NCBI GenBank assembly: GCA_964606085.1 | Contig: CAZSFD010000007.1 | Coordinates: 27,234 to 91,233 of the forward strand | From: an uncultured Anaerolineaceae bacterium | GTDB lineage: Bacteria > Chloroflexota > Anaerolineae > Anaerolineales > UBA4823 | Direction of reading: 5' to 3' | DNA: 64,000 nt | Shown: positions 1,304 through 11,395 of the stretch, piece after piece | Layout: each line of letters opens with the position of its first letter | Numbering within the stretch: position 1 is the stretch's first letter | Notes under the pieces: model-generated | Seen by the model: the letters and a program-made list of their open reading frames with translations, nothing else | Database searches by the model: none | Told to the model about the DNA's origin: nothing | Made by a program: the position numbers and the translations under genes

Positions 1304-1388
1304 GTAAGTCAAAGGTCGAAAGTCACAGGTCAAAAAACTTGCTTCTGACCTTCGACCTGCTACCTGCCACCCGCCACCCGCCACGCCT
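1304..1388. repeat. Inverted heptamer-repeat arrays between ybaK and plsC
   Basis: gtaagtc aaaggtc gaaagtc acaggtc aaaaaac (1304-38) faces gaccttc gacctgc tacctgc cacccgc cacccgc (1347-81). The segments 1313-25 and 1346-58 pair at 12 of 13 positions. Confidence 0.85.
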
Positions 1389-2061
1389 CCCCATTCTCTT
1401 CCAACAACGCTTTCAGCCGCGGATGCTCGGCGTAGAAGCCGCGATACCTGGGTGGTATTTGGGCGGCGATGCGGCACATGATTTCGTCGGTGGCGGCTTT
1501 AAGCTGCGTATCGCGGTCGGCCTTCTCGTCGAGCGGGGGCAGCGTGTAGGCTTGGCCCACGTTGGCAATCGCTTTCGGGCGGCGCAGGCGTTTGAAGGCG
1601 GCCTGCACGGCGCTATCTTCCGTCCCCCACACCCCCACCGGGATCACCGGAACCCCCATCTTCAACACCAAATAACTCGCCCCCAGCTTGCCTTCGATCA
1701 GGGCTTCGGTTTTGCTGCGCGTGCCTTCGGGGGCAATGACCAGCATGTTGCCGGCCTTCAGGCGTTTGAGCAGTTCGCGCATCGTTTTGAAATCGGCGTT
1801 GTCGCGGTCAATCCACACCCCATTCAACACGGTCATCGCATAGCTCAAGCCCGGCACTTTTTTGTATTTATCGGCGGCAATGATGGTGACGTCTTCGCGG
1901 TTGAGATAGGTGAAGGGCAAAAAAGCATCCAGGCGGCCCAGGTGGTTGCCCGTGCCAACGCAAGCGCCGCTGGCGGGGAAGTTTTCCAGGCCGTAGACCT
2001 TGATGTCGGTGGTCAGGCCCATGACAAAGCGGATGATCGAACGGAGTGTTTGTGGTTTCAT
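1360..2061 (-). CDS. plsC: 1-acyl-sn-glycerol-3-phosphate acyltransferase (PlsC/LPLAT family)
   Basis: HX4D motif (GNHLGRLD) and the APEGTRS motif are present. Start chosen at MKPQTL. The last codons overlap a heptamer repeat array. Confidence 0.8.
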   Translation of the reverse strand: MKPQTLRSIIRFVMGLTTDIKVYGLENFPASGACVGTGNHLGRLDAFLPFTYLNREDVTIIAADKYKKVPGLSYAMTVLNGVWIDRDNADFKTMRELLKRLKAGNMLVIAPEGTRSKTEALIEGKLGASYLVLKMGVPVIPVGVWGTEDSAVQAAFKRLRRPKAIANVGQAYTLPPLDEKADRDTQLKAATDEIMCRIAAQIPPRYRGFYAEHPRLKALLEENGEAWRVAGGR

Positions 2062-2138
2062 GCAACCCTCGCAACAGAGATTTTCCATCTGCGTACAGGA
2101 TGTAGCGCTGTGATTTTAACCCAAAAAGGATGATCCCC

Positions 2139-3386
2139 ATGACCATATCCATCCATGAAGATACGCTCTCTGTTGATGAAATTATCGCCAACGCCATGAA
2201 CACTTTGGCGCGCCTGTGGTGGGATTGCGCCATGACCCTGCCCGGTGAGCAGCCCCTTCGCAGCCGCACCGAGCAAAGCGCGGCCGAAGCTGAGATGGAT
2301 CGCTTCTTGCAGTCCGCTCAGGCGGTGCTGAGCAATCCACCGCACAGCCAGGCCGAACAGATGGCCGTGCGAGAACGCCTGTTTCCGGTGGCCCGCCACG
2401 CCGCACAGGTGATCTTCGGTCTGCAAGCGGCTCACCTCGACGCCCTCGGCATGGACGATTTCGCCGAAATTGCCATCCAATTTTCACGCCAGGCGCGCCA
2501 GTTCGACCCGGCCATCAGCTTCGCCGATATTTACCAGGCCGCCCGCAACGTCATCACCACCAATATGCTGCAACGCCTGTGGGGGATGCCCGTGCGACTC
2601 AACCCGGCCATTTTTGCGTATAGTATGCTCTACCCCTATACCGATAATTACCTCGACGACCCGGCCCTTTCACGCGCCGAAAAGCGCGCTTTCAGCCAGC
2701 GCTTCAGCCTGCGGCTTGAAGGCGAGGCCGTGCAGCCCGCCAACGCCCACGAAGGGCGCATTTTCGATTTGGTGGGCATCATCGAAGGGGAGTACCCGCG
2801 CCCCGCTTTCCCCCAGGTTTTCGACAGCCTGCTCGCCATCCACCGGGCGCAGACGCGTTCGCTGGCGCTCTTGCAGCCTGGCGCCGCCCCCTACACGCTC
2901 GATGTGCTGGGCATCAGCCTCGAAAAAGGCGGCACGTCCACCCTGGCCGATGGCTACCTGATCAACGGCCACATCACGCCTTTACAGGCGCAATTTGCCT
3001 TTGGGCTGGGCGCGTTTTTGCAATTGGGCGATGATCTGGAAGATGTGCTGGACGACCGCCAGGCCGGCATCCAGACGTTGTTTGCCCAGGTGGCCGGCCA
3101 CTGGCCGCTGGACACGCTCACCAGCCGCACGATGCACTTTGGCCTGCATGTTTTCGACCTGCTTGACGACCTGGGCACGCCCCCCGAATTGTGCGAATTT
3201 GTGCGCCGCTGCACGTTCCAACCTTTCGTCAGCGCCATTCACCGCGGGCGCAGGCTGTACAGCCGGGAATACCTGCGCCAGGTGGAGCAGCGCTCGGCCT
3301 TCCGCTACGGCCATCTCGACCGCCAGAACCGCTGGCTGCATCGCTGGCAGAAATCCTTGGGGGCGGCGCTGGAAGGCGTTATGTAA
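2139..3386 (+). CDS. Hypothetical protein with two Asp-rich motifs (isoprenoid-synthase-like fold suspected)
   Basis: Long ORF with normal composition. AAAGGA lies 8 nt before ATG 2139. Motifs YPYTDNYLDD and FLQLGDDLEDVLDD resemble the first and second Asp-rich motifs of trans-prenyl/terpene synthases. Function unverified. Confidence 0.6.
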   Translation: MTISIHEDTLSVDEIIANAMNTLARLWWDCAMTLPGEQPLRSRTEQSAAEAEMDRFLQSAQAVLSNPPHSQAEQMAVRERLFPVARHAAQVIFGLQAAHLDALGMDDFAEIAIQFSRQARQFDPAISFADIYQAARNVITTNMLQRLWGMPVRLNPAIFAYSMLYPYTDNYLDDPALSRAEKRAFSQRFSLRLEGEAVQPANAHEGRIFDLVGIIEGEYPRPAFPQVFDSLLAIHRAQTRSLALLQPGAAPYTLDVLGISLEKGGTSTLADGYLINGHITPLQAQFAFGLGAFLQLGDDLEDVLDDRQAGIQTLFAQVAGHWPLDTLTSRTMHFGLHVFDLLDDLGTPPELCEFVRRCTFQPFVSAIHRGRRLYSREYLRQVEQRSAFRYGHLDRQNRWLHRWQKSLGAALEGVM

Positions 3387-3391
3387 GTGTT

Positions 3392-5668
3392 CTACCGATA
3401 GCCATAGCGCGCCATCGCCACCGATTGGATGGTCATTTCGGGGCTGATCTCCATTTCGAGCCAGGCCAGTTCTTGGCGCAGGGCTTCGAGCTGGGTCGAA
3501 TCGACCAGGAAAATATCGGGGTAGAGTACGCCCTTGAAGAAGGGCCTGAACCTGGCACTGCCTGAGAGGGCCTCGAAAACGAGGGTGTCGTAGCTGTGCA
3601 ACACGGTGATCTGTGACAATTCCACCTTGCGCCCACCCTCGGCCCACGAACGCAAGGCCAGCGCCAGCAAACGCGGCATTTCGGCCATCAGGCGTTCGTT
3701 CAGCAGGCGCAAAAGCTGGTCGGGCTTGCGTTTGGCGGCGATGGCGGCGCGCACGCTGTTGGCGGTCAGCCGCCAGTGGCCTTCGGGGGTGGGTTCGACC
3801 CAGGGGGTGAGTTGTGCTTCGATCAACAGGTCGCGGGTTTTGCTTTTCAATTGCAGCAGGCCATCTTCGCTGGCGGTCAGGCACTTGGGCAGCGCCATGC
3901 CATAGTTGAGGCGCGTGATGCCCTGCGGGGGGTGGCTGTATTGGGTCGGGTCGGTCAACAGCAGAAAACGCTCGCCAATCAAGGTTCCTTTGAGACCTTT
4001 TTTGCCGAAGGGCCCGTCGCGCATGGCGCGCTGGCGGGCTTTTTCGTTATCAAATTCGAGCAGGCTGGCGCGGCGGTAACAGGTCATGCGTTCGCGTAAG
4101 CCCGCCCACTCGGTCAGTTCAACGACCACGTTTTGCGGCAGGTCGGTGGCTGAACCGGCGCGCAGGCCGTCGAGCAGCCCCGCCAGCGTGGAGCCGCTTT
4201 CGAGACCGCGATAGACGGATTGGCGGGTAAGCAGGTAGTGGGCGGTATGCTGGTGGGCTTGCTGGCGTTCGGCGTGGCGTTCGATGAAGGCCAATTGCGC
4301 CGGGGTGGCCTGTTCGAGGTAGACGATCAGGTCAAAATTGGGCTGCACCACCCAGGTCGTTTGGCCTTCGGCAGATTGCAGGGAAACCGCCTCTGCCTCC
4401 GCTTTGGCCGGAGCAGAAGCAGCCAGGGTGGGATGGAATACGTCACAGCCCAGTTCGGTCAGGCGCATGGCGGCAACTCGCTCACCATCGCTGGCAAGTT
4501 CGACCACGCCGAGGAAATAAAGCCAGCTGCGCAGCGCCGCTTCGAGCCAGGCACGTTCAAGTTTGAGCCAGGCCGCCCGGCGCTGGGCGCGCCATTTGTT
4601 CTCCTGCTTGTCGTCATTCTCATAGCGCATATAGTAGGGGCGGGAGGAATTGCCATCGAGCGAAAAATATTCGCCGGCGCGGTGGTAGAGCGCCTGTTCA
4701 AAATCATCTACCGAAAAGAATGGATGGCCCTCGAGCGGCAAGGCGCTTAACCCCAGGGTCAGCATCAAACGCCCGGCCATGCGGTGTGTGCCATATTGAT
4801 CGAACCAGCGGCTGGGTTCGGGGATTTCCAACCAGTTGGCTGAACGCACCAGGCCATAGAGCAAAATGCGCACCTGCTCGTGGACGGGCCGGTCGGCAAA
4901 GGTCATCAAGGGTTCGGCCAGCACCAGGCGTTCTTCGCTGGCGCTCATCAACCCCGAACGGGCCAGGGCATGCACCCAGGCTTCGGTGGGGTCGGGCATG
5001 GCAAAGCCATCGAGCGTGATGCCCGTTTCGGGCCAGCGCAGGGTTTTGCGCAGTTTTTTGATCTCGGTGGCGCGGATCAGGCCGGTTTTGGTCAGCAGCA
5101 GGCCGCCGATCTGGTCAACCGCCTGCAACACGCCTAACAGGTCAAGGGCCACAACAGCCGGGCGGCGGAAACTGGTGTGTTCGGGCGTGCCGATGGTGGG
5201 CAGGGTCAACGGGGCAACATTGACATAGCCAGAGACCTGGAGCAGCCGCAGGTCGCTCCAGATGATGTTGGAGGAGTATTCGGTGAAATAGGCGGGGTTG
5301 TATTGGTAATTGCTCAACACCAGGCCGCGTTTGAACAGGCGGCTGACCAGTTCTTTGGCATCGAGCGGCATTTTGCGGGCGTTGGTGGGCAGGTCGCCGC
5401 CGGCGGCAATCAGCCCTAAACCGAGTATCTCGTAATTCGTGGTGCCGCCCATGTAACGCAAGATAGCCAGGGCGTTGCGTTCCCAGGTAGGCAGCGCCTC
5501 GACGGCGGCCTTGACCTTGTAGGGGTCTTTCAGGCCATCCACAACGATTTTGGCCGCCTCGCCTTTCGATATATTCGACCTGCCGCCCCACAGCCGCGCC
5601 ATTGCCTTCACTTCGGGGGCGTTGATCATATCGAGGTAGGTATCGAAATGCAGGCTCGTATCGTCCAT
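3392..5668 (-). CDS. XPB-associated large protein E with C-terminal XPB-NTD / TFIIH p52(Tfb2)-like module
   Basis: 758 aa, last gene of the XPB operon; its ATG directly abuts the stop of the 65-aa ORF. Motifs: WVVQPNFDLIVY, LTRQSVYRGLESG, LPQNVVVELTEW. Size and position recall the about 750-aa neighbour of mycobacterial XPB (from memory). Confidence 0.8.
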   Translation of the reverse strand: MDDTSLHFDTYLDMINAPEVKAMARLWGGRSNISKGEAAKIVVDGLKDPYKVKAAVEALPTWERNALAILRYMGGTTNYEILGLGLIAAGGDLPTNARKMPLDAKELVSRLFKRGLVLSNYQYNPAYFTEYSSNIIWSDLRLLQVSGYVNVAPLTLPTIGTPEHTSFRRPAVVALDLLGVLQAVDQIGGLLLTKTGLIRATEIKKLRKTLRWPETGITLDGFAMPDPTEAWVHALARSGLMSASEERLVLAEPLMTFADRPVHEQVRILLYGLVRSANWLEIPEPSRWFDQYGTHRMAGRLMLTLGLSALPLEGHPFFSVDDFEQALYHRAGEYFSLDGNSSRPYYMRYENDDKQENKWRAQRRAAWLKLERAWLEAALRSWLYFLGVVELASDGERVAAMRLTELGCDVFHPTLAASAPAKAEAEAVSLQSAEGQTTWVVQPNFDLIVYLEQATPAQLAFIERHAERQQAHQHTAHYLLTRQSVYRGLESGSTLAGLLDGLRAGSATDLPQNVVVELTEWAGLRERMTCYRRASLLEFDNEKARQRAMRDGPFGKKGLKGTLIGERFLLLTDPTQYSHPPQGITRLNYGMALPKCLTASEDGLLQLKSKTRDLLIEAQLTPWVEPTPEGHWRLTANSVRAAIAAKRKPDQLLRLLNERLMAEMPRLLALALRSWAEGGRKVELSQITVLHSYDTLVFEALSGSARFRPFFKGVLYPDIFLVDSTQLEALRQELAWLEMEISPEMTIQSVAMARYGYR

Positions 5669-5866
5669 CTACTCGATCACTTTCGGGGTGTGGCCCTGCT
5701 TGAGCAGGCGGTTGAGCAGCGTGTCGAACTGGCCGGGGGCCACGATGGCCACGCAGTCAGACAGGCGCGTGAGCAGATAGACCGCCGTGCGCGGGTCTGC
5801 GTACAGGTCGTCGAGAATGTGGGCGTCGGCTACTTCGATCAGGGGGAGGTTGTCGTGGAGGATCAT
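5669..5866 (-). CDS. 65-aa protein D, stand-alone copy of the terminal beta-alpha-beta unit of the XPB-NTD/p52 module (p8/Tfb5-sized)
   Basis: ATGA overlap with the XPB stop and TAG-ATG abutment with gene E indicate translational coupling. Its sequence LPLIEVADAHILDDL...VAIVAPGQFDTLLNRLLKQGHTP parallels XPB residues NLILVGEDAILITEI...LLVRPGMRGHIKQALLQVGYP. Confidence 0.6.
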   Translation of the reverse strand: MILHDNLPLIEVADAHILDDLYADPRTAVYLLTRLSDCVAIVAPGQFDTLLNRLLKQGHTPKVIE

Positions 5867-7557
5867 GCCTGCAAAACTTCATCTTCATACAAAATTTCGT
5901 ATTTGTAGCCCTGCTCGGTGAGGAAGCGTTGGCGGTTGGCGTTGAAGGTCTGGTCTACGGTGTCGCGGGTGACGATGGTGTAGAAGTGCGCCATCGCGCC
6001 GTCGCTTTTGGGGCGCAGGATGCGTCCGAGGCGCTGGGCTTCTTCCTGGCGGCTGCCGAACGTGCCAGAGATTTCGATGGCCACATTGGCATCGGGCAGG
6101 TCAATGCTGAAATTAGCCACCTTCGAGACGACCAGGCGCTTCACTTCACCGGTACGGAATTTGGCATAGAGCTTTTCGCGCTCGCGCACGGGCGTTTCGC
6201 CAGTGATCAGCGGGGCCTCAAGGGCGGCAGCAACCTGGTTGAGCTGGTCGAGGTAAGTGCCGATGATCAGCAGGTTTTCGTGGGCGTGACGGTTGATGAT
6301 GGCCTTCAGCATCGGCAGCTTGCGCGGGTTGTGGGCGGCAATGGGGTATTTTTCGCGCTGGTCGGCCATGGCGTAGATCATGCGCCAATCATCATCGAGC
6401 GGGATGCGTACCTCGTGGCAGGCGGCGGTGGCGATCCAGCCCTGTTTTTCCATATCTTTCCAGGGCACATCGTATTTTTTGGGGCCGATCAGCGAGAAGA
6501 CATCGCCTTCGAGGTTGTCTTCGCGCACCAGCGTGGCCGTCAGCCCCAGGCGGCGGCGGGCCTGCAACTCGGCGGTGATGCGGAATACCGGGGCGGGAAG
6601 CAGATGCACTTCGTCGTAAATCACCAGCCCCCAGTTGCGGGCGTTGAACAACTCGAAGTGGGGGTATTCGGCGTCGGCGCCTTTGGTACCACGCTTGCGA
6701 TAGGTGAGAATTTGATAGGTGCTGACCGTGACCGGACGGATGTCTTTTTGCAGGCCAGAGTATTCGCCCACCTGGTCTTCGGTGAGGGTGGTTTTATCAA
6801 TCAACTCGCTCATCCACTGGCGCACGGCCACGGTGTTGGGCGTGAGGATCAGCGTGGAGGCCTGTAACTGGTGCATGGCGGCCATGCCGACGATGGTCTT
6901 GCCGGCCCCGCAGGGCAGCACAATCGTGCCACTGCCGCCGCGCGACGAGCCTTCGGCATGGAAGACGGCCGCGGCCTCCTGCTGGTATTTGCGCAGGTTG
7001 AACGGACGCCCGCCCAGCGTAAGCGGGCGCAGTTCGATAGGCAGCGCCTCGCCCACCACATATCCGGCCAGGTCTTCGACCGGGTAGCCGACTTGCAAGA
7101 GCGCCTGCTTGATGTGGCCGCGCATCCCTGGCCTGACCAGCAAGCGCGTGGCATCGAGCTGCTGCCCGATAAAGGGCTGCACCTTTTTATGGCGCACAAT
7201 TTCGGTGATGAGGATGGCGTCTTCGCCGACCAAAATCAGGTTTTCGCCTTCTTTGATCAGCTTCACCCGGCCATAGCGCCCCATGTAATCTTCGATGTCG
7301 CGCACCACATTGCCGGGCAGGTCATACTTGGCATAGTCGCGCAGCCCGCTGACGATCTGCGCCGCCGAAAAGCCTGACGAGGCCGCATTCCACAGCGAGA
7401 GCGGCGTAACGCGGTAGGTGTGGATGTATTCGGGCGATTTTTCCAACTCGGCAAAGCGCGCCAGCACGTCGCGAGCGGGAGTGTAGTTTTCGTTATTGAC
7501 TTCGAGCAGGATGGTTTTGTCACCCTGGACGATGATGGGGTTGGATGCGTTGAACAT
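5863..7557 (-). CDS. xpb: XPB/Ssl2 (ERCC3/Rad25)-type SF2 DNA helicase
   Basis: Walker A CGAGKT, DEVH box (YDEVHLLPA) and the XPB-specific RED motif (TATLVRED) are present. The N-terminal domain has IIVQGDKTILLEV and LPGNVVRDIEDY. Length 564 aa. Confidence 0.9.
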   Translation of the reverse strand: MFNASNPIIVQGDKTILLEVNNENYTPARDVLARFAELEKSPEYIHTYRVTPLSLWNAASSGFSAAQIVSGLRDYAKYDLPGNVVRDIEDYMGRYGRVKLIKEGENLILVGEDAILITEIVRHKKVQPFIGQQLDATRLLVRPGMRGHIKQALLQVGYPVEDLAGYVVGEALPIELRPLTLGGRPFNLRKYQQEAAAVFHAEGSSRGGSGTIVLPCGAGKTIVGMAAMHQLQASTLILTPNTVAVRQWMSELIDKTTLTEDQVGEYSGLQKDIRPVTVSTYQILTYRKRGTKGADAEYPHFELFNARNWGLVIYDEVHLLPAPVFRITAELQARRRLGLTATLVREDNLEGDVFSLIGPKKYDVPWKDMEKQGWIATAACHEVRIPLDDDWRMIYAMADQREKYPIAAHNPRKLPMLKAIINRHAHENLLIIGTYLDQLNQVAAALEAPLITGETPVREREKLYAKFRTGEVKRLVVSKVANFSIDLPDANVAIEISGTFGSRQEEAQRLGRILRPKSDGAMAHFYTIVTRDTVDQTFNANRQRFLTEQGYKYEILYEDEVLQA

Positions 7558-7592
7558 GGGGGAGGGGGGTAAGTCGTTATTGGTTGTTAGTT

Positions 7593-7657
7593 ATTCGATA
7601 TTCGATATTCGATATTCGGTGTTCGAGTAACGAATATCGAATTATCGAATATCGAAT
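7593..7657. repeat. AT-rich heptamer-repeat palindrome inside the XPB operon
   Basis: attcgat x3 + attcg (7593-7618) is the near-perfect reverse complement of cgaatatcgaattatcgaatatcgaat (7631-7657), with one extra t. The loop is 12 nt. Confidence 0.9.
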
Positions 7658-7665
7658 TCGGCTGA

Positions 7666-9408
7666 TTAAGCATTCATATCCATAATTTCAGGAGTATAGG
7701 CGTCGGCGAATTGGGCGATGGCCTGCTCGAAACGCGGCCAGTGAACTTGCGAGAGGGTGATGGTGCGCAGGGTTGTATCGGGTTGGAAGGGGCAGCGCAG
7801 TTCGGCCAGCGCCAGTCGGAAGGCGTCGAACGCTTCGGCGCTGGGGAAGGTGATGGTGATGGAGGTCTGGCGTTTGAGCGGCAGCACTTGTGGGCCAACG
7901 GGCTGCGCCGGGGCCGGGGGGATTTCTTTGGGGAAGAGGCTTTGGGCGGCTTCGGGAAGCGGCAGGAAGCTGGCTGACAGGTGAGCGGCAATCAGCGGAA
8001 CGCATCCGGCGCTTTCGAGGCCGGCAGCCAGTTGCTCGGCGTGGCGCACCAGGGCCAGCCCCGGGGCGATGCGCTCGGCGATGTGGTCAGACACGCCCGG
8101 CAGGGTGAGATCGCCCTCGAACAGGCCGATATTCTCGTACAGGGTGAACTGGTCGGCGTGGCCGCTCCATTCTTCCAGTTCGGCCAGCACGTTGGGCGGC
8201 AGGTCGCGCCCGCTCATCTGGCGCAGCAGGGCAATCACGGCTAAATCGGGCTGGCGCACCAGTTCGGCGGCCACCAAGTCCTTTTTCAGGCGTAAGATCG
8301 TCACCGAGGCCCCCACCACGCCGCCAGGCTGCGAGATGGTTTCGGTCAGCGGGCGAAGCTGCTGCATCACTTTGGTGGGGTAAATTTCGGCCTCGACGAT
8401 GACATCGAAGTTGGGCTGCACGGTGACGTTGGGCTGCATCGTCTCGCCGCGCATCAGACGCAGGAAGCGCTCTTGCACACGGAAGGCTTTGAGAACGCCG
8501 CGCTCAGGGCGCGCGCCCTCGTAACGGGCGGGGGCATAGGCTACATCCACAAAACGCAGGACAAGCGGGATGTATTCGAGAAAACGCTCGACGTAGCGGC
8601 CTTCCACACGCTCGAAGGCATCGGGGTCGCTTTCGGCGATCGGTTCGCGGTTGAGGTCCCAATCGGTGCGGCCTTCATAGAAGTTATCGTAGCGTTTGGA
8701 CTTATTGCCCCAGCGGTCGGCTTTGATTTTTTCGGGAATGAGGAAAAAAGGGTGCTGCTGCTTCAAATGGGCAATCAGGGCTGCGGTGCTGTACCACACC
8801 CCTGGCTGACACTGCTGCAAGACTTCGAGCAAAAAGCGGCGTACGCGCACAAAGTCAATCGAGGGCATCACACCCACGGCTGAACCGCGCACCGCAAAAT
8901 GATCCAGGCGGCCCAAAATGGCGGGGGTATAAAATTCGTTGCGCGGCGAGGGGTAAGCGCCGCCCGTATTCACTTCGTTGATCAGGATTTCGAGCAGCCG
9001 CTTTTCTTGCTCGGCGGGGGTCAGTTCGAGAAAGGCGTGCAAAACCTTCTCACTGACAGCAATGTAATTTTCAGTGAACGATGGTTCGCTGCTGGAGTAG
9101 CCGCGGTAAGTGCCTTTGACATCGTACCCGGCCAGCCCGGCCAGCCAGGCCAGGTGGTCAATGAAGTCAATCCAGCTTAAGCGCTGGCTGGCGTAAACGG
9201 CGTTGTCGAAGCGCGGTGAGCCGAGGGCTTTGTCGAGGCGGTTGAGGTCGGCCTGGGGAATCTGGTTGGTGCGCGTCATGCGTTTGACGCTGCGCGTGCG
9301 CATGTAATCGAGGTAGATCAGCAAGTCTTCAAGCAGGTCGCGGTCGTTGCTGGCAATGCTCAGGCCGTCAACGGGCATCTCTTCGAGGGCGAGGGGCGGC
9401 TTGCTCAT
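7666..9408 (-). CDS. XPB-associated large protein B with XPB-NTD / p52-like module
   Basis: 580 aa, with ATGA overlap to upstream gene A. Motifs VTVQPNFDVIVE and LPPNVLAELEEW are followed by a beta-alpha-beta tail. No nuclease or NTPase motif was seen. Confidence 0.8.
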   Translation of the reverse strand: MSKPPLALEEMPVDGLSIASNDRDLLEDLLIYLDYMRTRSVKRMTRTNQIPQADLNRLDKALGSPRFDNAVYASQRLSWIDFIDHLAWLAGLAGYDVKGTYRGYSSSEPSFTENYIAVSEKVLHAFLELTPAEQEKRLLEILINEVNTGGAYPSPRNEFYTPAILGRLDHFAVRGSAVGVMPSIDFVRVRRFLLEVLQQCQPGVWYSTAALIAHLKQQHPFFLIPEKIKADRWGNKSKRYDNFYEGRTDWDLNREPIAESDPDAFERVEGRYVERFLEYIPLVLRFVDVAYAPARYEGARPERGVLKAFRVQERFLRLMRGETMQPNVTVQPNFDVIVEAEIYPTKVMQQLRPLTETISQPGGVVGASVTILRLKKDLVAAELVRQPDLAVIALLRQMSGRDLPPNVLAELEEWSGHADQFTLYENIGLFEGDLTLPGVSDHIAERIAPGLALVRHAEQLAAGLESAGCVPLIAAHLSASFLPLPEAAQSLFPKEIPPAPAQPVGPQVLPLKRQTSITITFPSAEAFDAFRLALAELRCPFQPDTTLRTITLSQVHWPRFEQAIAQFADAYTPEIMDMNA

Positions 9409-10790
9409 GGGCGCACCGCCTTGACCACGAAGCCGGCCTTGCGTACGCTCTTCTCCACTTCGTTGGCAAGCCCGGCGGGGAAGGCGACAAACTGATCAGA
9501 CAGGACGATCAGGTTTCCTTTCAGGTCACGTTCGAGCTGCACGCGCAGGCTCAGGTCGCGCACGCGAGCCAGGCGCAGGTTCAGGTGAACGATATTTTGG
9601 CCCCATTTTTCTTCGACCTGTACCATATTCTGCGCAAAGGCCGGGATGTGCTGACACAACCAGGCGGCCAGGGGTGACTGGCGTTCAGCGGGGGTCAGGC
9701 GGCCTAATTTGACCAGGCCAGGCACGGCGATCAGGTTATTGTGTTGCACCTGCAAGGCTGCCAGGCGGTTGATCTGCTCCAGGTCGGCCAGGGGGATGCG
9801 GCGCAAATCCACCAGCGCCGACTGGCCATCAGGGCCAGGCGTAAGGAACTGATCGGGTGTCAGAGCTTCGGCGGGTTTTGCGAATGGCAGCCGGTAATAG
9901 GTGGCGGCGCCCTCTTGCAGTCTTTCGAGCAAGCCCCAATGCCTGCCTGCTTCGCACATTTGGGCCACTGAAGGCATTTGCGCACCAAAGCACCAGGTGC
10001 GCAGCAACGGTTCGAGTTGGATAACCGTTACCCATTCATCGGGCTGCAAGGTTTTTAAGATGTGCGGTATCACTTCAGTTGGGTGTTTGACGGTGGGATC
10101 ATTGGGCAGGATCACCCGTGAAGTGACCTGCCAGGCGCTGCGCTGCCATTCGACCAGCCCTGCGCCAGTAATGGGGCGTTCTCCCAGGTACAGCGTGCCG
10201 GCGACGAGGGTGAGCGCAAAGGGTTCTTTGGGCAATTGGCTCGAAACGATTGGCCCTCCTACCACTTCGAGCAATTTCTGCCGCACAATATTGGCGTTCA
10301 CTTCGCCCTGGGCCTGGCTTTTGTGCGGGTGACGGATGAGCGGCGGCAGGTAAGCGACAAACTCGGGCGGGAAGCGGTAACGCCAGCGTTCCATTTGGAC
10401 GCTTTCACCGCGCTGCTTGACCTCCGCCATCACCAGCACGCCTTTGCGCACCAGGTTTTGCTTGACACAGTCGAAGGTGGGGCGATATTGCTGGGTAAAT
10501 GTGCCGGAATAATACTTTTGATCACTGCGTGCGCTGCCATAGAGCCGCTCGAAGAAACTGATGTCCACTTCTTGCGCTTGAAAGGCGAGCAGGTAGAGTG
10601 TGGCGATTTCTTCATCGGAAAGGGTCTGCATCACCCCATCCAGCCCGATGCTGGTGAGAAAGAAACTCTCGAAGGCGGCGCGTGAGGCGGTCTCTTTTTG
10701 TCCGAAGCCACGCGCCTTGCGAATAGCCTTGATGTCAGCCTCGGCCAACGTTTCGTGGCACATCTGGTTGAGCAAGCGAGAAAGTTCCAT
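9405..10790 (-). CDS. XPB-associated protein A, divergent paralogue with p52-like C-terminal module
   Basis: 461 aa, first gene of the operon, preceded by a near-consensus promoter and an AAGGAA SD. The C-terminal IPAFAQNMVQVEEKWG plus the tail NLIVLSDQFVAFPAGLANEVEKSVRKAGF fit the same module more loosely. Confidence 0.75.
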   Translation of the reverse strand: MELSRLLNQMCHETLAEADIKAIRKARGFGQKETASRAAFESFFLTSIGLDGVMQTLSDEEIATLYLLAFQAQEVDISFFERLYGSARSDQKYYSGTFTQQYRPTFDCVKQNLVRKGVLVMAEVKQRGESVQMERWRYRFPPEFVAYLPPLIRHPHKSQAQGEVNANIVRQKLLEVVGGPIVSSQLPKEPFALTLVAGTLYLGERPITGAGLVEWQRSAWQVTSRVILPNDPTVKHPTEVIPHILKTLQPDEWVTVIQLEPLLRTWCFGAQMPSVAQMCEAGRHWGLLERLQEGAATYYRLPFAKPAEALTPDQFLTPGPDGQSALVDLRRIPLADLEQINRLAALQVQHNNLIAVPGLVKLGRLTPAERQSPLAAWLCQHIPAFAQNMVQVEEKWGQNIVHLNLRLARVRDLSLRVQLERDLKGNLIVLSDQFVAFPAGLANEVEKSVRKAGFVVKAVRP

Positions 10791-10814
10791 AAATCACAGT
10801 TCCTTAACAGGGCG

Positions 10815-10843
10815 ATTGTAATAGATGGATGAGACGATGTCAA
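10815..10843 (-). promoter_or_regulatory. Sigma70-type promoter of the XPB operon (TTGACA-17 nt-TACAAT)
   Basis: On the minus strand, TTGACA is at 10843-10838, followed by a 17-nt spacer and TACAAT at 10820-15. This is about 25 nt upstream of ATG 10790 and immediately after the infA terminator. Confidence 0.55.
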
Positions 10844-10880
10844 ACAAAAAGAGCCAGGCGGCATGCCGCCTGGCTCTTTG
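10843..10880 (-). terminator. Rho-independent terminator after infA
   Basis: 12-bp perfect stem (10850-10861 / 10866-10877) with a CATG loop, followed on the minus strand by a T run (plus-strand A run 10845-10850). Confidence 0.8.
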
Positions 10881-10912
10881 GTTAATTTATCGGGTTGGGT
10901 GTGTATGTGGGC

Positions 10913-11164
10913 TTAAAACTCAAGACTGGGGGACTCGTTGCGTTTTTTCTGGCGGTAAACAATGCGTCCGCGTGTCAGATCGTATGGCGACATTTCTACA
11001 CGCACCTTGTCACCCAATAAAATGCGAATGTAATACTTGCGCATTTTACCCGACAGATAAGCCAACACCTCGTGCCCGCTATCGAGGCGGACACGGAATT
11101 GAGTTCCTGGCAGCGCTTCGACGACGGTGCCTTCCACTTGAATTTTATCTTCTTCCTTAGCCAC
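10913..11164 (-). CDS. infA: Translation initiation factor IF-1
   Basis: [70 protein letters not shown] is the canonical IF-1 S1-fold sequence. GTG start chosen. Confidence 0.9.
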
Positions 11165-11197
11165 ACACACCTCCAAATCTTTCTAAATTGAACAGGA

Positions 11198-11395
11198 TCA
11201 CTCCATCGCCTCACGTTGGCGGCGGCGAAGGCGGCGCATGGATTTTTTATCCGAGATGCGACGCAGTTCACTCTTTGACACGAACCAGCGTTTGCGGCGA
11301 ATGGTGCTGAGCACGCCGCTCTTGGCCACCTTCTTGCGAAAGCGCTTGAGAAGTTGATCCTGGCTCTCATTTTGACGAAGTACAACAGTAGTCAC
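11198..11395 (-). CDS. rpsU: 30S ribosomal protein S21
   Basis: VTTVVLRQNESQDQLLKRFRKKVAKSGVLSTIRRKRWFVSKSELRR. GTG 11395 is preceded by AGGAGGTGA. Confidence 0.85.
   Translation of the reverse strand: MTTVVLRQNESQDQLLKRFRKKVAKSGVLSTIRRKRWFVSKSELRRISDKKSMRRLRRRQREAME

Follow-up and report, generated by a model that had tools for sequence, protein, structure and literature searches.

A bacterial operon that joins an XPB helicase gene to three genes for large proteins and one for a 65-aa protein raises the question of what these partners are and how they relate to the eukaryotic factor TFIIH. The five genes (A, B, XPB, D, E, in this order) lie on the minus strand of a 64,000-nucleotide stretch of DNA, the window, from an Anaerolineae (Chloroflexota) bacterium. 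The original prediction raised the possibility of an expanded TFIIH-core-like assembly. They do not encode a TFIIH core, because none of the five is a counterpart of XPD, p44, p34 or p62. The combination of XPB, three p52 relatives and a p8-like D nevertheless suggests that an XPB-p52-p8 module does occur in bacteria. We assign a probability of roughly 0.6 to the reading that the five genes specify a bacterial equivalent of this sub-module of TFIIH, in which A, B and E would be the p52-like and D the p8-like components. Homologues of p52 have been stated to be absent from bacteria (PMC3353954), and no paper describing bacterial p52 or p8 homologues was found.

Layout and boundaries of the operon

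All five open reading frames were found on the minus strand where the original prediction had placed them (Table 1). The ATGA overlaps at the A/B and XPB/D junctions are present in the sequence, the TAG of D is followed directly and in-frame by the ATG of E, and the B-XPB spacer is 108 nt long. The couplings to XPB are translational, and the tight junctions are kept together with the five-gene order. The spacer is not just AT-rich, as described, but is built from two inverted arrays of a 7-nt repeat. The resulting hairpin (stem of about 27 bp, RNA MFE -33.4 kcal/mol, z -7.6) occurs once in the window and matched no Rfam family. Strong hairpins of unrelated sequence occupy the same B-XPB position in loci L021, L022, L026-L028, L031 and L084. 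They are missing from loci where B and XPB abut, and in many relatives the two genes lie end to end or share a few nucleotides (gap -4 to +3).

The near-consensus promoter predicted right behind the infA terminator was confirmed, and it is the sole 11/12 consensus match within 3000-11300. Its -35 and -10 elements and the downstream CGCCCTGTTAA leader are kept in the two closest relatives, L084 and L086, where each promoter sits behind a different terminator hairpin. Judged by its sequence, the promoter is probably strong and of a constitutive type. At the other end the operon runs, as foreseen, against a convergent gene, a 418-aa ORF (2130-3386) that lies 5 nt from the end of E. Housekeeping genes whose synteny is conserved flank the operon. 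A to E are probably transcribed as a single unit, although the strong hairpin lies between B and XPB.

Table 1. Features of the XPB operon and its borders in the window.
Feature	Coordinates	Strand	Basis or remark
infA	10913-11176		upstream neighbour of the operon; Pfam eIF-1a
infA terminator	10848-10879	minus	14-bp stem with 9 GC pairs and a T-run; upstream limit of the operon
Operon promoter	10815-10843	minus	TTGACA-17-TACAAT; 11/12 consensus match
A, predicted p52/Tfb2-like, 461 aa	9405-10790	minus	AF2 model and Foldseek
A C-terminal ~65 aa (aa 396-461)	9408-9605	minus	possible D-like/p52-CTD-like module
B, probable p52-like paralogue of E, 580 aa	7666-9408	minus	hhalign to E family
B XPB-NTD-like (clutch) module, aa ~325-480	7969-8436	minus	includes D-like sub-domain
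Intercistronic hairpin, B-XPB spacer	7587-7657	minus	two inverted arrays, ~5 x 7-nt TATTCGA
XPB SF2 DNA translocase/helicase, 564 aa	5863-7557	minus	NCBIfam NF045503, Pfam, motifs
XPB N-terminal module, aa ~8-165	7063-7536	minus	NTD and D-like sub-domain; Pfam Helicase_C_3
D, putative p8-like protein, 65 aa	5669-5866	minus	conservation, hhalign, profile search
E, predicted p52/Tfb2-like, 758 aa	3392-5668	minus	two tandem XPB-NTD-like modules
E module 1, aa ~436-560	3989-4363	minus	clutch/XPB-NTD-like domain, LT481 motif
E module 2, aa ~600-740	3449-3871	minus	last ~75 aa a D-like C-terminal domain

Relationship of the partner proteins to p52 and p8

XPB had been called unambiguous, and its score against the NCBIfam equivalog NF045503 (862 bits, cut-off 610) agrees with this. 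The GAGKT, DEVH and RED motifs are present in the translation, and Pfam places Helicase_C_3 (8-134), ResIII and ERCC3_RAD25_C on the protein. Domain searches found no nuclease, methylase or second NTPase in A, B, D or E, in line with the original prediction, and the structure and profile searches matched none of the four to well-characterised unrelated families.

E gave the clearest match to p52. The top 18 Foldseek matches of its AF2 model (pLDDT 84.7) against the PDB were all TFIIH p52/Tfb2, with E values down to 3.4e-10 and an alignment of about 590 columns that covers the full length of p52. The E family profile, compared with 177,635 PDB sequences, ranked the p52 clutch first (E 2e-4), before the XPB NTD. 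Pfam Tfb2 was matched by 11 of 30 E homologues (best 2.4e-6), while E of the window itself reached no Tfb2 score. Both E modules were recognized by the XPB N-terminal profile (97.7% each, E 1.5e-12 for module 1 and 2.1e-12 for module 2). Module 1 also carries Pfam Helicase_C_3 (440-551) and aligns with 'rLTReS' of Tfb2; T481 is invariant in the family alignment, as is in E the T119-equivalent threonine that is highlighted for the NTD of XPB and for the clutch of p52. For A, the top seven Foldseek matches of the model (pLDDT 88.1, pTM 0.76) were again all p52/Tfb2 (E 1.6e-5, probability 1.00, about 510 columns). The A family has at least 155 homologues, none of them named; 36 members gave no Pfam match, the family has neither a Pfam nor an NCBIfam model, and sequence comparison of A with p52 or E detected no significant link. 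On these models, which were built on shallow alignments (30-36 sequences), A and E are each predicted to have a p52-like fold across the whole length of p52.

The TM-scores of A and E against p52 are low (0.2-0.3, rmsd about 16 Å) because the domain arrangement differs between multi-domain chains, and the p52 match is therefore carried by local 3Di and sequence scores. It is very improbable that A, B and E are ordinary DNA-binding regulators beside XPB whose succession of winged-helix domains and small alpha/beta domains converges on p52 in 3Di space: the low TM-scores, the ArsR-type winged-helix repressors among the secondary matches of A and the lack of Pfam Tfb2 scores for E and A of the window are outweighed by the facts that every significant Foldseek match of both models is full-length p52/Tfb2, that only the XPB NTD besides p52/Tfb2 reaches E < 1e-3, and that the E profile ranking, the Tfb2 scores of the E homologues, the invariant threonine and the coupling of the partner genes to XPB all point the other way.

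B would be p52-like through its homology to E. The two families align over B 17-449 and E 153-534 (hhalign 99.5%, E 1e-22; BLAST of B against E 1.7e-6), and B has no counterpart of the N-terminal ~150 aa of E. The XPB N-terminal profile matched B with E 1e-4, and 10 of 36 members of the B family, which has at least 525 homologues, weakly touch Pfam Helicase_C_3. The expectation of three large paralogous partners was thus upheld in a broad sense, as all three are p52/Tfb2-like, A and E by predicted structure and B by sequence.

D is a real gene, because it was called independently in two related contigs, is kept in 16 other loci, and differs between close relatives mostly by synonymous codon changes (24-33 versus 3-8 non-synonymous). 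It is under purifying selection, and its family comprises 123 representative clusters. D was aligned to E 665-740 (hhalign 94%, E 1.5e-7), a region modelled at 688-736 as beta-alpha-beta-beta-alpha, and is homologous to the C-terminal module of E. D-like segments were also found in B (403-475; 89.5%, E 2e-6), in the N-terminal module of XPB (columns 100-180 of its profile; 87%, E 4e-6) and, weakly, at the C-terminus of A (hhalign of the families, E 5.6e-4, 30% probability), which is modelled as beta-alpha-beta-alpha. A diverse D profile retrieved yeast Tfb5 (p8) as all of its top five PDB matches, with marginal E values (0.005-0.008); human p8 gave no score, and a profile of the E CTD alone found neither Tfb2 nor Tfb5. 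The protein that had been noted as p8-sized stands to the E CTD in the same relation as p8 to the CTD of p52, and its equivalence to p8, seen with yeast Tfb5 only, is proposed with moderate confidence.

Partner modules and their possible action on XPB

Among the 55 XPB loci with adequate flanks that were surveyed, 52 had at least one p52-like neighbour, and XPB-adjacent p52-like partners recur in several phyla. The expected co-occurrence of the partners with XPB in relatives was thus observed. At least 13 further loci share the five-gene order (11 from the XPB survey plus L084 and L086), a recurrence far beyond chance. Partners that fell into unrelated families or failed to co-occur with XPB had been named beforehand as findings that would speak against the prediction; neither was seen.

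The five genes do not have to occur together as a single unit. A-B-XPB was found alone in 16 loci and XPB-D-E alone in three; Desulfobacterales and Bacteroidales have A-B-XPB as well, and Deinococcus has XPB-D-E. A-B is absent in L001 and L023, and within the clade of the window D-E has repeatedly been lost, with remnants in L012 and L029; in the surveyed loci D was nowhere seen without E, save as a decayed remnant. Because each module stands alone elsewhere and D-E has been lost, the five-gene form combines two separable partner modules, A-B and D-E, both of which are present in the window's clade.

The action of p52 and p8 on XPB has been described for TFIIH, where the N-terminal half of p52 binds p34 and p62 (PMC7708078; Greber et al., bioRxiv 10.1101/507723). 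By analogy, the clutch module of a p52-like subunit would pair sheet-to-sheet with the N-terminal domain of XPB, the presumed docking site. D would pair with the C-terminal domain of E by strand addition, like p8 with the p52 CTD, and this pair would then contact the second RecA lobe and the thumb of XPB. Together these contacts would keep the two motor lobes in a productive arrangement, which would raise basal ATPase and set the rate under DNA stimulation. The N-terminal halves of A, B and E, which are helical and winged-helix, could tether the complex to DNA or a partner, so that the translocating XPB would open duplex DNA or reel it, and not merely slide along it. Since p34 and p62, the N-terminal partners of p52, are absent, the anchoring role is speculation. 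We infer that the partners may both tune the XPB ATPase and anchor XPB.

XPB has a single NTD, and the clutch-type modules available to it number four. It is possible, though we consider it on the whole unlikely, that A-B and D-E are partly redundant sets that compete for this NTD, so that one operon would yield two XPB complexes with different targets and the spacer hairpin would set the relative dosage of the two sets. The excess of clutch modules, the stand-alone and lost modules described above, and the hairpin that parts A-B from XPB-D-E in the window and several relatives would fit this arrangement. However, the five-gene order is stable and tightly coupled, the overlapping or abutting B and XPB genes of many relatives suggest one translational unit, and the two E modules could bridge XPB and A/B within a single assembly.

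Cellular output and comparison with known systems

The output of the proposed XPB-p52-p8 sub-module is most likely to relieve stress on DNA or transcription, by processing damage or by clearing and restarting stalled complexes, and not defence; the operon is placed in conserved housekeeping DNA. A narrower reading, which we regard as rather doubtful, is that the complex acts beside RNA polymerase as a bacterial analogue of the initiation role of TFIIH, in promoter opening or escape or in the clearing of stalled polymerase. SNF2-family helicase genes recur close to related A-B-XPB loci, but this proximity may be inherited synteny only, and the genes that adjoin XPB at L043 encode the AddAB repair enzyme. 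No RNA-polymerase-binding domain was found in the operon proteins, and bacterial transcription initiation is not known to require ATP-driven opening. In Mycobacterium tuberculosis, XPB is adjacent to Rv0862c, which is presumed from synteny to be E-like/p52-like. Tn-seq showed both genes to be hypersusceptible to rifampin, an RNA-polymerase inhibitor (LFC -1.45 for XPB and -1.68 for Rv0862c), and not to isoniazid, while the immediate flanks, Rv0860 and Rv0863, were not significant in the rifampin arm (PMC10534295 and its supplement). The ercc3 phenotype was validated by targeted deletion, but it is modest (2.6-fold), and a CRISPRi screen that the paper cites did not reproduce it (PMC10534295). 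The phenotype shared with Rv0862c may be a polar effect. In TFIIH, XPB opens promoters as an anchored translocase (PMC7708078).

An anti-phage or anti-plasmid defence role, in which an XPB-type helicase and its accessory proteins would sense or translocate on foreign DNA, is very improbable. In its helicase core XPB is similar to PbeA and to restriction helicases of the DndB type (PADLOC PbeA 91 bits, TIGR04095 60 bits), the occurrence across taxa is patchy and includes gene loss, and the Deinococcus and Acaryochloris megaplasmid copies sit between transposases. Against this, XPB is an equivalog-level orthologue of the DNA repair helicase XPB and not of PbeA; PADLOC matched none of A, B, D and E; nuclease, toxin and methylase domains were absent in domain searches; the flanks are syntenic housekeeping genes; and searches matched neither B in plasmids nor E in phages.

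Archaeal XPB is encoded beside a dedicated partner, Bax1, that modulates its ATPase (review PMC13024598), and the operon shares this adjacency. Bax1 itself, a nuclease related to XPG, binds the thumb and HD2, whereas domain, profile and Foldseek searches found neither a nuclease domain nor Bax1 similarity in the operon partners. Other comparable loci are the XPB-E'-E'' loci of other Anaerolineae/Caldilineales and the XPB-E loci of Planctomycetota, where one or two p52-like genes matched by the E profile follow XPB. These loci have no A-B pair and no free-standing D, the D-like segments lying inside the ~790-aa E'', and their XPB is only 54-63% identical to that of the operon. Actinobacterial XPB (Rv0861c/Ercc3 in M. 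tuberculosis), whose biochemistry was done with XPB alone (PMC3353954), belongs to the same orthologue group (54-57% identity). The large neighbour noted for mycobacterial XPB falls in the same superfamily, since the ~725-800-aa 'helicase-associated domain-containing protein' matches the E profile (L060, Tsukamurella). In Actinobacteria a single E-like gene of this type lies upstream of XPB or at a distance of some kilobases; A, B and D were not seen at their loci.

Eukaryotic TFIIH (XPB/p52/p8; Ssl2/Tfb2/Tfb5 in yeast) differs from the operon in having XPD, p44, p34, p62 and CAK, N- and C-terminal extensions of XPB, and one p52 instead of three p52-like paralogues, of which E carries two clutch-type modules in tandem and B is without the N-terminal domain. 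Sequence identity to p52 reaches only 11-15%, and the bacterial genes form an operon whose products are predicted to interact. In both systems the XPB motor carries an N-terminal domain, the partners have the same domain order (helical NTD, MD1, a clutch homologous to the XPB NTD, a small CTD) and there is a ~65-70-aa protein homologous to a p52-type CTD, and p52 itself is the best structural and sequence match of E. An XPB-p52-p8 module that papers have described as missing from bacteria thus appears to be present here in an expanded form.

Operon layout and expression signals

The five minus-strand open reading frames were found at the coordinates that the original prediction had assigned to them, with ATGA overlaps at the A/B and XPB/D junctions and with the ATG of E placed directly after the TAG of D, in frame. 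The promoter proposed for the operon, TTGACA-17-TACAAT, was the sole 11/12 match within positions 3000-11300, and it is located right behind the infA terminator, which consists of a 14-bp GC hairpin followed by a T-run. The two nearest relatives keep the -35 and -10 hexamers and the downstream CGCCCTGTTAA, with another terminator hairpin in front of them in each locus, which argues that the promoter is functional. At the other end, a convergent ORF of 418 amino acids lies 5 nt from the end of E. The operon is flanked by infA, rpsU and genes for an aminotransferase, a YbaK-type editing protein and sensor kinases. The positions of all features are collected in the table below.

Features of the window and of related XPB loci (L-numbers are XPB loci of other genomes, each with its own coordinates)
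Locus	Position	Strand	Feature
Window	9405-10790	-	A, 461 aa
Window	7666-9408	-	B, 580 aa
Window	5863-7557	-	XPB, 564 aa
Window	5669-5866	-	D, 65 aa
Window	3392-5668	-	E, 758 aa
Window	10815-10843	-	operon promoter
Window	7558-7665	-	B-XPB spacer
Window	7558-7580	-	C-rich tract before XPB
Window	2130-3386	+	convergent gene abutting E
Window	1339-2133	+	264-aa gene before the convergent gene
Window	~10611-10745	-	A aa 16-60, resembling E aa 11-51
Window	~5516-5638	-	E aa 11-51
L084	3879-4021		repeat-rich B-XPB spacer
L084	~3995-4021		C-rich tract before XPB
L084	8320-9597		425-aa gene after E
L086	~8790-8815		C-rich tract before XPB
L012	5727-5888		truncated, diverged D after XPB
L029	5835-6209		125-aa fragment matching E
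L072	11622-13430		602-aa protein overlapping the XPB end
L043	11678-18110		XPB, then AddB- and AddA-type genes
L006	11767-15054		SNF2-family helicase
L014	11667-13724, 15073-18363		SWIM zinc-finger protein and ORF of SNF2-helicase size
L082	7753-8082		109-aa D homologue

Neither the convergent gene nor the 264-aa gene before it belongs to a Pfam family. At the same place after E, L084, one of the two closest relatives with the five-gene order, has a 425-aa gene; an acyltransferase gene and a tRNA_edit gene come next, just as they do in the window, and synteny is therefore kept on this side.

The spacer between B and XPB has the predicted length of 108 nt, but its description as AT-rich was incomplete, the region being more structured than that. 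The TATTCGA heptad is repeated about five times in each of two inverted arrays, which fold into a hairpin of approximately 27 bp (-33 kcal/mol, z = -7.6), which occurs a single time in the window. No Rfam family matched this hairpin or the operon leader. The spacer is hypervariable among relatives. At the same position, L021, L022, L026-L028 and L031 carry a near-perfect hairpin of 18-20 bp (AACGGAACACGCAACACG...) unrelated to that of the window. L084 shows a further structure rich in repeats, the L086 spacer lacks any, and numerous loci leave no gap between B and XPB, which abut or even overlap. A T-run does not follow any of these hairpins. The element could be an RNA structure that sets dosage or a recurrent insertion of a small repeat. 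A C-rich, purine-poor tract (CCCCCCTCCCCC) precedes the XPB start codon, and tracts of this kind are found in L084 and L086 (CCAACCTACCCCAC and CCAACTTTCCTC), in all cases with no Shine-Dalgarno sequence. The start of A differs from that of XPB in having an AAGGA 10 nt upstream of its ATG.

p52-like and p8-like partners of XPB

The helicase scored 862 bits, with a cut-off of 610, against the NCBIfam equivalog model NF045503, DNA repair helicase XPB (residues 7-555 on model positions 1-547). Its translation includes the GAGKT, DEVH and RED motifs, and Pfam identified Helicase_C_3, which is the XPB N-terminal domain (NTD; amino acids 8-134), ResIII and ERCC3_RAD25_C. Searches of Pfam, NCBIfam and PADLOC recognized a single Helicase_C_3 domain in E (440-551) and nothing in A, B or D. 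Public homologues of A, B and D are named hypothetical proteins and those of E helicase-associated domain-containing proteins.

Searched one by one as single sequences, E, B and D retrieved only noise from the PDB, and so did the family profiles of B and A. A profile of E built from 30 homologues was compared with 177,635 PDB sequences, and the best match was the clutch of TFIIH p52/Tfb2 (the MD2 domain, an XPB NTD-like module; E-value ~2e-4), with the XPB NTD just behind (E-value 1e-3). The Pfam Tfb2 family (PF03849) was touched by 11 of the 30 E homologues at an E-value of 0.1 or less, the best being 2.4e-6; at the same threshold there was no match for A, B or E of the window, and no member of the A family matched. 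The AlphaFold2 model of E (pLDDT 84.7) was then compared with known structures by Foldseek. The top 18 matches were all p52/Tfb2 chains, with E-values down to 3.4e-10, a probability of 1.00 and alignments of about 590 columns that span the whole length of p52; among them are 6trs, a crystal structure of p52/p8, and 6tru, a structure of the N-terminal half. The TM-scores of the p52-like models were low (0.2-0.3 for E), as rigid superposition of flexible multi-domain chains would produce. Greber et al. singled out a threonine common to the XPB NTD (T119) and the p52 clutch. Its equivalent in E, T481, is invariant across the E family and aligns to the Tfb2 sequence LTReS.

The other two large proteins were connected to p52 by different routes. 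At the sequence level B is a straightforward paralogue of E (hhalign 99.5%, E-value 1e-22, B 17-449 with E 153-534). Profile searches with A gave no convincing link to anything, and its model (pLDDT 88.1, pTM 0.76) had p52/Tfb2 as its top seven Foldseek matches (E-value 1.6e-5, about 510 columns). With 461 amino acids, A has the size of human p52. In p52 the domains are arranged as NTD-MD1-MD2(clutch)-CTD (PMC7708078), and the predicted structures of E and A show this architecture. All three large partners are p52-like, E and A by predicted fold and B by sequence homology to E. As a side observation, E and A resemble each other near their N-termini (amino acids 11-51 and 16-60, respectively; hhalign E-value 7e-4). 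The N-terminus of E also weakly resembles the SAP DNA-binding motif of Ku70 (PDB 1jjr, E-value 0.072), which is a lead for DNA anchoring; no member of the E family matched Pfam SAP.

A profile of the XPB N-terminal module (amino acids 1-180, 72 sequences) was used to map related segments. E includes two tandem whole copies (97.7% each, E-value ~1e-12) and B a weaker single copy (E-value 1e-4), and D is the counterpart of the module's second half (87%, E-value 4e-6). In A, a clutch-like domain is visible in the predicted structure only.

Several observations show that D, despite its 65 amino acids, is a genuine gene. Sixteen other loci conserve it, a second gene finder predicted it independently in two relatives, and between close relatives its codon differences are 24-33 synonymous versus 3-8 non-synonymous, a sign of purifying selection. 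Among 1.84 billion proteins its family accounts for 123 representative clusters, whose members are nearly all small, most of them 55-125 amino acids, and carry the domain at the C-terminus. The D family aligned with the C-terminal module of E (665-740; hhalign 94%, E-value 1.5e-7), a part that is modeled as beta-alpha-beta-beta-alpha. D is also homologous to B 403-475 and, weakly, to the last 65 residues of A. D thus stands to the C-terminal module of E as p8 stands to the p52 CTD, with which it shares a common fold (PMC7708078).

The direct connection to p8 is marginal. A diverse D profile (92 sequences) had yeast Tfb5 as all of its top five PDB matches (E-values 0.005-0.008, Tfb5 residues 8-55), and a narrow profile (17 sequences) found nothing in PDB or Pfam apart from faint WCX (0.021) and Helicase_C_3 (0.19) matches. 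D did not match Pfam Tfb5 (PF06331), the profile of the E CTD alone found neither the Tfb2 CTD nor Tfb5 in the PDB, and human p8, taken as an approximate sequence, gave no score against the D profile. Therefore, we call D p8-like with moderate confidence.

Many members of the D family have variable N-terminal extensions. In the homologue encoded on Deinococcus taeanensis plasmid p_TS293_3 (L082), the extension includes the AT-hook-looking KKRGRPPKSGK followed by a Pro/Ala-rich linker, a hint that some p8-like subunits may touch DNA. Compared with L001, the locus with the closest XPB, identity was 94% for D, 87% for XPB and 59% for E; D and XPB appear to be under far stronger constraint than the p52-like proteins.

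Partner genes at bacterial XPB loci

We scanned 80 XPB loci, one genome per species, with our own profiles, and 55 of them had enough flanking sequence. Since similarity to the XPB of the window decided which 80 loci were included, the proportions are no census of all bacteria. A p52-like neighbor was present in 52 of the 55. The most common arrangements were A-B-XPB (16 loci), XPB followed by two E-like genes (15), the complete A-B-XPB-D-E (10) and XPB with one E-like gene (6). XPB-D-E was found in three loci, A-B-XPB with a decayed D in one, and an E-like gene upstream of XPB in one locus from Actinomycetes; three loci had XPB alone. A-B-XPB is also present in Desulfobacterales and Bacteroidales, XPB-D-E on the Deinococcus taeanensis megaplasmid (D profile 1e-17, E profile 4e-91), and a single E-like partner in Planctomycetota, Sumerlaeota, Spirochaetota, Acaryochloris and Tsukamurella.

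In the XPB tree, three-gene and five-gene loci are interleaved inside the clade of the window. L012 and L029 retain apparent, decaying remnants of D and E, which support a recent loss of D-E in A-B-XPB loci, and L001 and L023 have no A-B. In the A-B-XPB loci, the genes downstream of XPB are unrelated and variable. The interleaved architectures, the remnants of D-E and the absences of A-B indicate that the five-gene operon is a composite of two separable partner modules, A-B and D-E, one or the other of which has been lost repeatedly.

When the partner-less loci were re-examined by hhalign, no p52-like match was found except a faint one in L072, from a Spirochaetales metagenome-assembled genome (MAG). 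Its 602-aa protein belongs to no Pfam family and matched the E clutch (26%, E-value 7e-4), and it might represent a p52-like partner that has diverged strongly. In L043, from a Hydrogenedentes MAG, XPB has no p52-like neighbor and is directly followed by AddB- and AddA-type helicase-nuclease genes, a DNA-repair context.

Three MAGs have two XPB loci each on separate contigs (L007/L028, L019/L025 and L009/L013), and two of these pairs combine an A-B-XPB locus with an A-B-XPB-D-E locus. L009, in the remaining pair, is a 3.7-kb contig in which only B-XPB is visible. The duplicates are either true paralogous loci or the product of mixed bins.

An SNF2-family helicase of about 1095 amino acids (Pfam SNF2-rel_dom and SNF2_assoc) is encoded less than 10 kb from XPB in L006. 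ORFs of similar size (about 1095-1170 amino acids) lie near L004, L005, L014, L019, L024 and L072; the Pfam scan covered the L006 copy. L014 also has a SWIM zinc-finger protein directly after XPB. None of the largest ORFs of the window is an SNF2 gene. The proximity may reflect inherited synteny or a functional link.

Possible activity and comparison with known systems

In TFIIH, the p52 clutch and the XPB NTD form a pseudo-symmetric dimer, and a second dimer, of the p52 CTD and p8, makes contact with RecA2 and the thumb. The two together stimulate the basal ATPase but set an upper limit to its DNA-stimulated rate, and translocation by the anchored XPB opens the DNA (PMC7708078; Greber et al.). 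By analogy, one of the clutch modules in A, B or E would dock on the XPB NTD, D would pair with the CTD of E, the N-terminal halves of the partners would provide the anchoring, and the p52-like proteins could stimulate or limit the XPB ATPase. D occurs only together with E. One XPB NTD is available for four clutch-type modules, and two alternative holoenzymes, one with A-B and one with D-E, are a plausible alternative to a single complex.

A further, independent hint is genetic and comes from transposon sequencing (Tn-seq) of Mycobacterium tuberculosis. In the supplement of PMC10534295, the XPB gene Rv0861c (LFC -1.45, adjusted p 1e-9) and the adjacent Rv0862c (LFC -1.68, adjusted p 1e-11) are both classed as hypersusceptible to rifampin, while Rv0860 and Rv0863 are not significant in the rifampin arm. 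Neither Rv0861c nor Rv0862c responds to isoniazid, both show a starvation trend in the same direction, and the ercc3 deletion was validated (PMC10534295). Rv0863, a small hypothetical gene beside Rv0862c, is listed as rifampin-hypertolerant under starvation, with a sign opposite to that of XPB and Rv0862c (PMC10534295, supplementary file 6). In Tsukamurella the gene order is moaC, a small hypothetical gene and the helicase-associated protein. From this synteny and from the size of Rv0862c, which we take to be consistent with an E-like gene, we infer that Rv0862c is E-like. Its Tn-seq phenotype could possibly be due to polarity on XPB. The specificity for rifampin keeps a transcription-linked role alive beside the conventional reading of XPB as a repair helicase.

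The boldest interpretation is that XPB-p52-p8, the lower lobe of TFIIH, was an ancient, pre-assembled bacterial machine and no invention of eukaryotes, widespread beside bacterial XPB and diversified (p52 paralogue classes A, B, E and E', and a free p8), that acts as a transcription-coupled anchored translocase on duplex DNA. We give this reading roughly one chance in five. If true, it would account for rifampin tolerance depending on both XPB and Rv0862c, p52-like by synteny, in M. tuberculosis, and the origin of the promoter-opening motor of TFIIH would become experimentally tractable in bacteria.

A role in defense looks unlikely because the partners A, B, D and E had no match in PADLOC-DB 2.0, where XPB itself gave partial helicase-core matches only (PbeA, 91 bits), no match was found for B in 72,556 plasmids or for E in 50,697 phage records, and the flanking genes are housekeeping ones. 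An archaeal-type pair of XPB and Bax1 was ruled out, since that system has an adjacent XPG-like nuclease partner and searches of Pfam, NCBIfam, PDB sequences and folds found no nuclease in A, B, D or E.

The likeness to TFIIH has its own limits. The operon had been described as TFIIH-core-like, which overstated the case: none of its five proteins is XPD-, p44-, p34- or p62-like, and XPD, the p44/p34 vWA-zinc-finger proteins and p62 were absent from the operon, the flanking ORFs and the ten largest other ORFs of the window. Only the XPB-p52-p8 sub-module of TFIIH is represented. In previous work p52 and other TFIIH subunits were considered to have no bacterial homologues, with bacterial XPB said to act independently of a TFIIH-like complex (PMC3353954), and a 2026 review still finds the function of bacterial XPB elusive (PMC13024598). 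Published biochemistry of bacterial XPB concerns XPB alone throughout. Hints already existed in the databases as Helicase_C_3 on E-like proteins and sporadic Tfb2 matches. A search of the full-text literature, a scope that leaves out most subscription journals, returned no description of bacterial p52/p8 homologues or of XPB operons. What appears to be new here is the XPB-p52-p8 module of TFIIH in bacteria, as an operon and with expanded p52 paralogues.

With these findings, a structural identity can be assigned to A (155+ clusters) and B (525+ clusters), both of them large families annotated as hypothetical proteins. A-B and D-E become available as clonable partner sets for reconstitution, and two Tn-seq hits of M. 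tuberculosis that had lacked an explanation now have a possible one. In eukaryotes, the p52 and p8 regulators decide the activity and speed of XPB. If bacterial XPB normally works with neighboring p52- and p8-like subunits, earlier experiments with XPB alone were carried out without its regulators. The operon also represents a prokaryotic out-group for tracing the origin of the TFIIH XPB-p52-p8 module, in which human disease mutations (XP, TTD and CS) are found.
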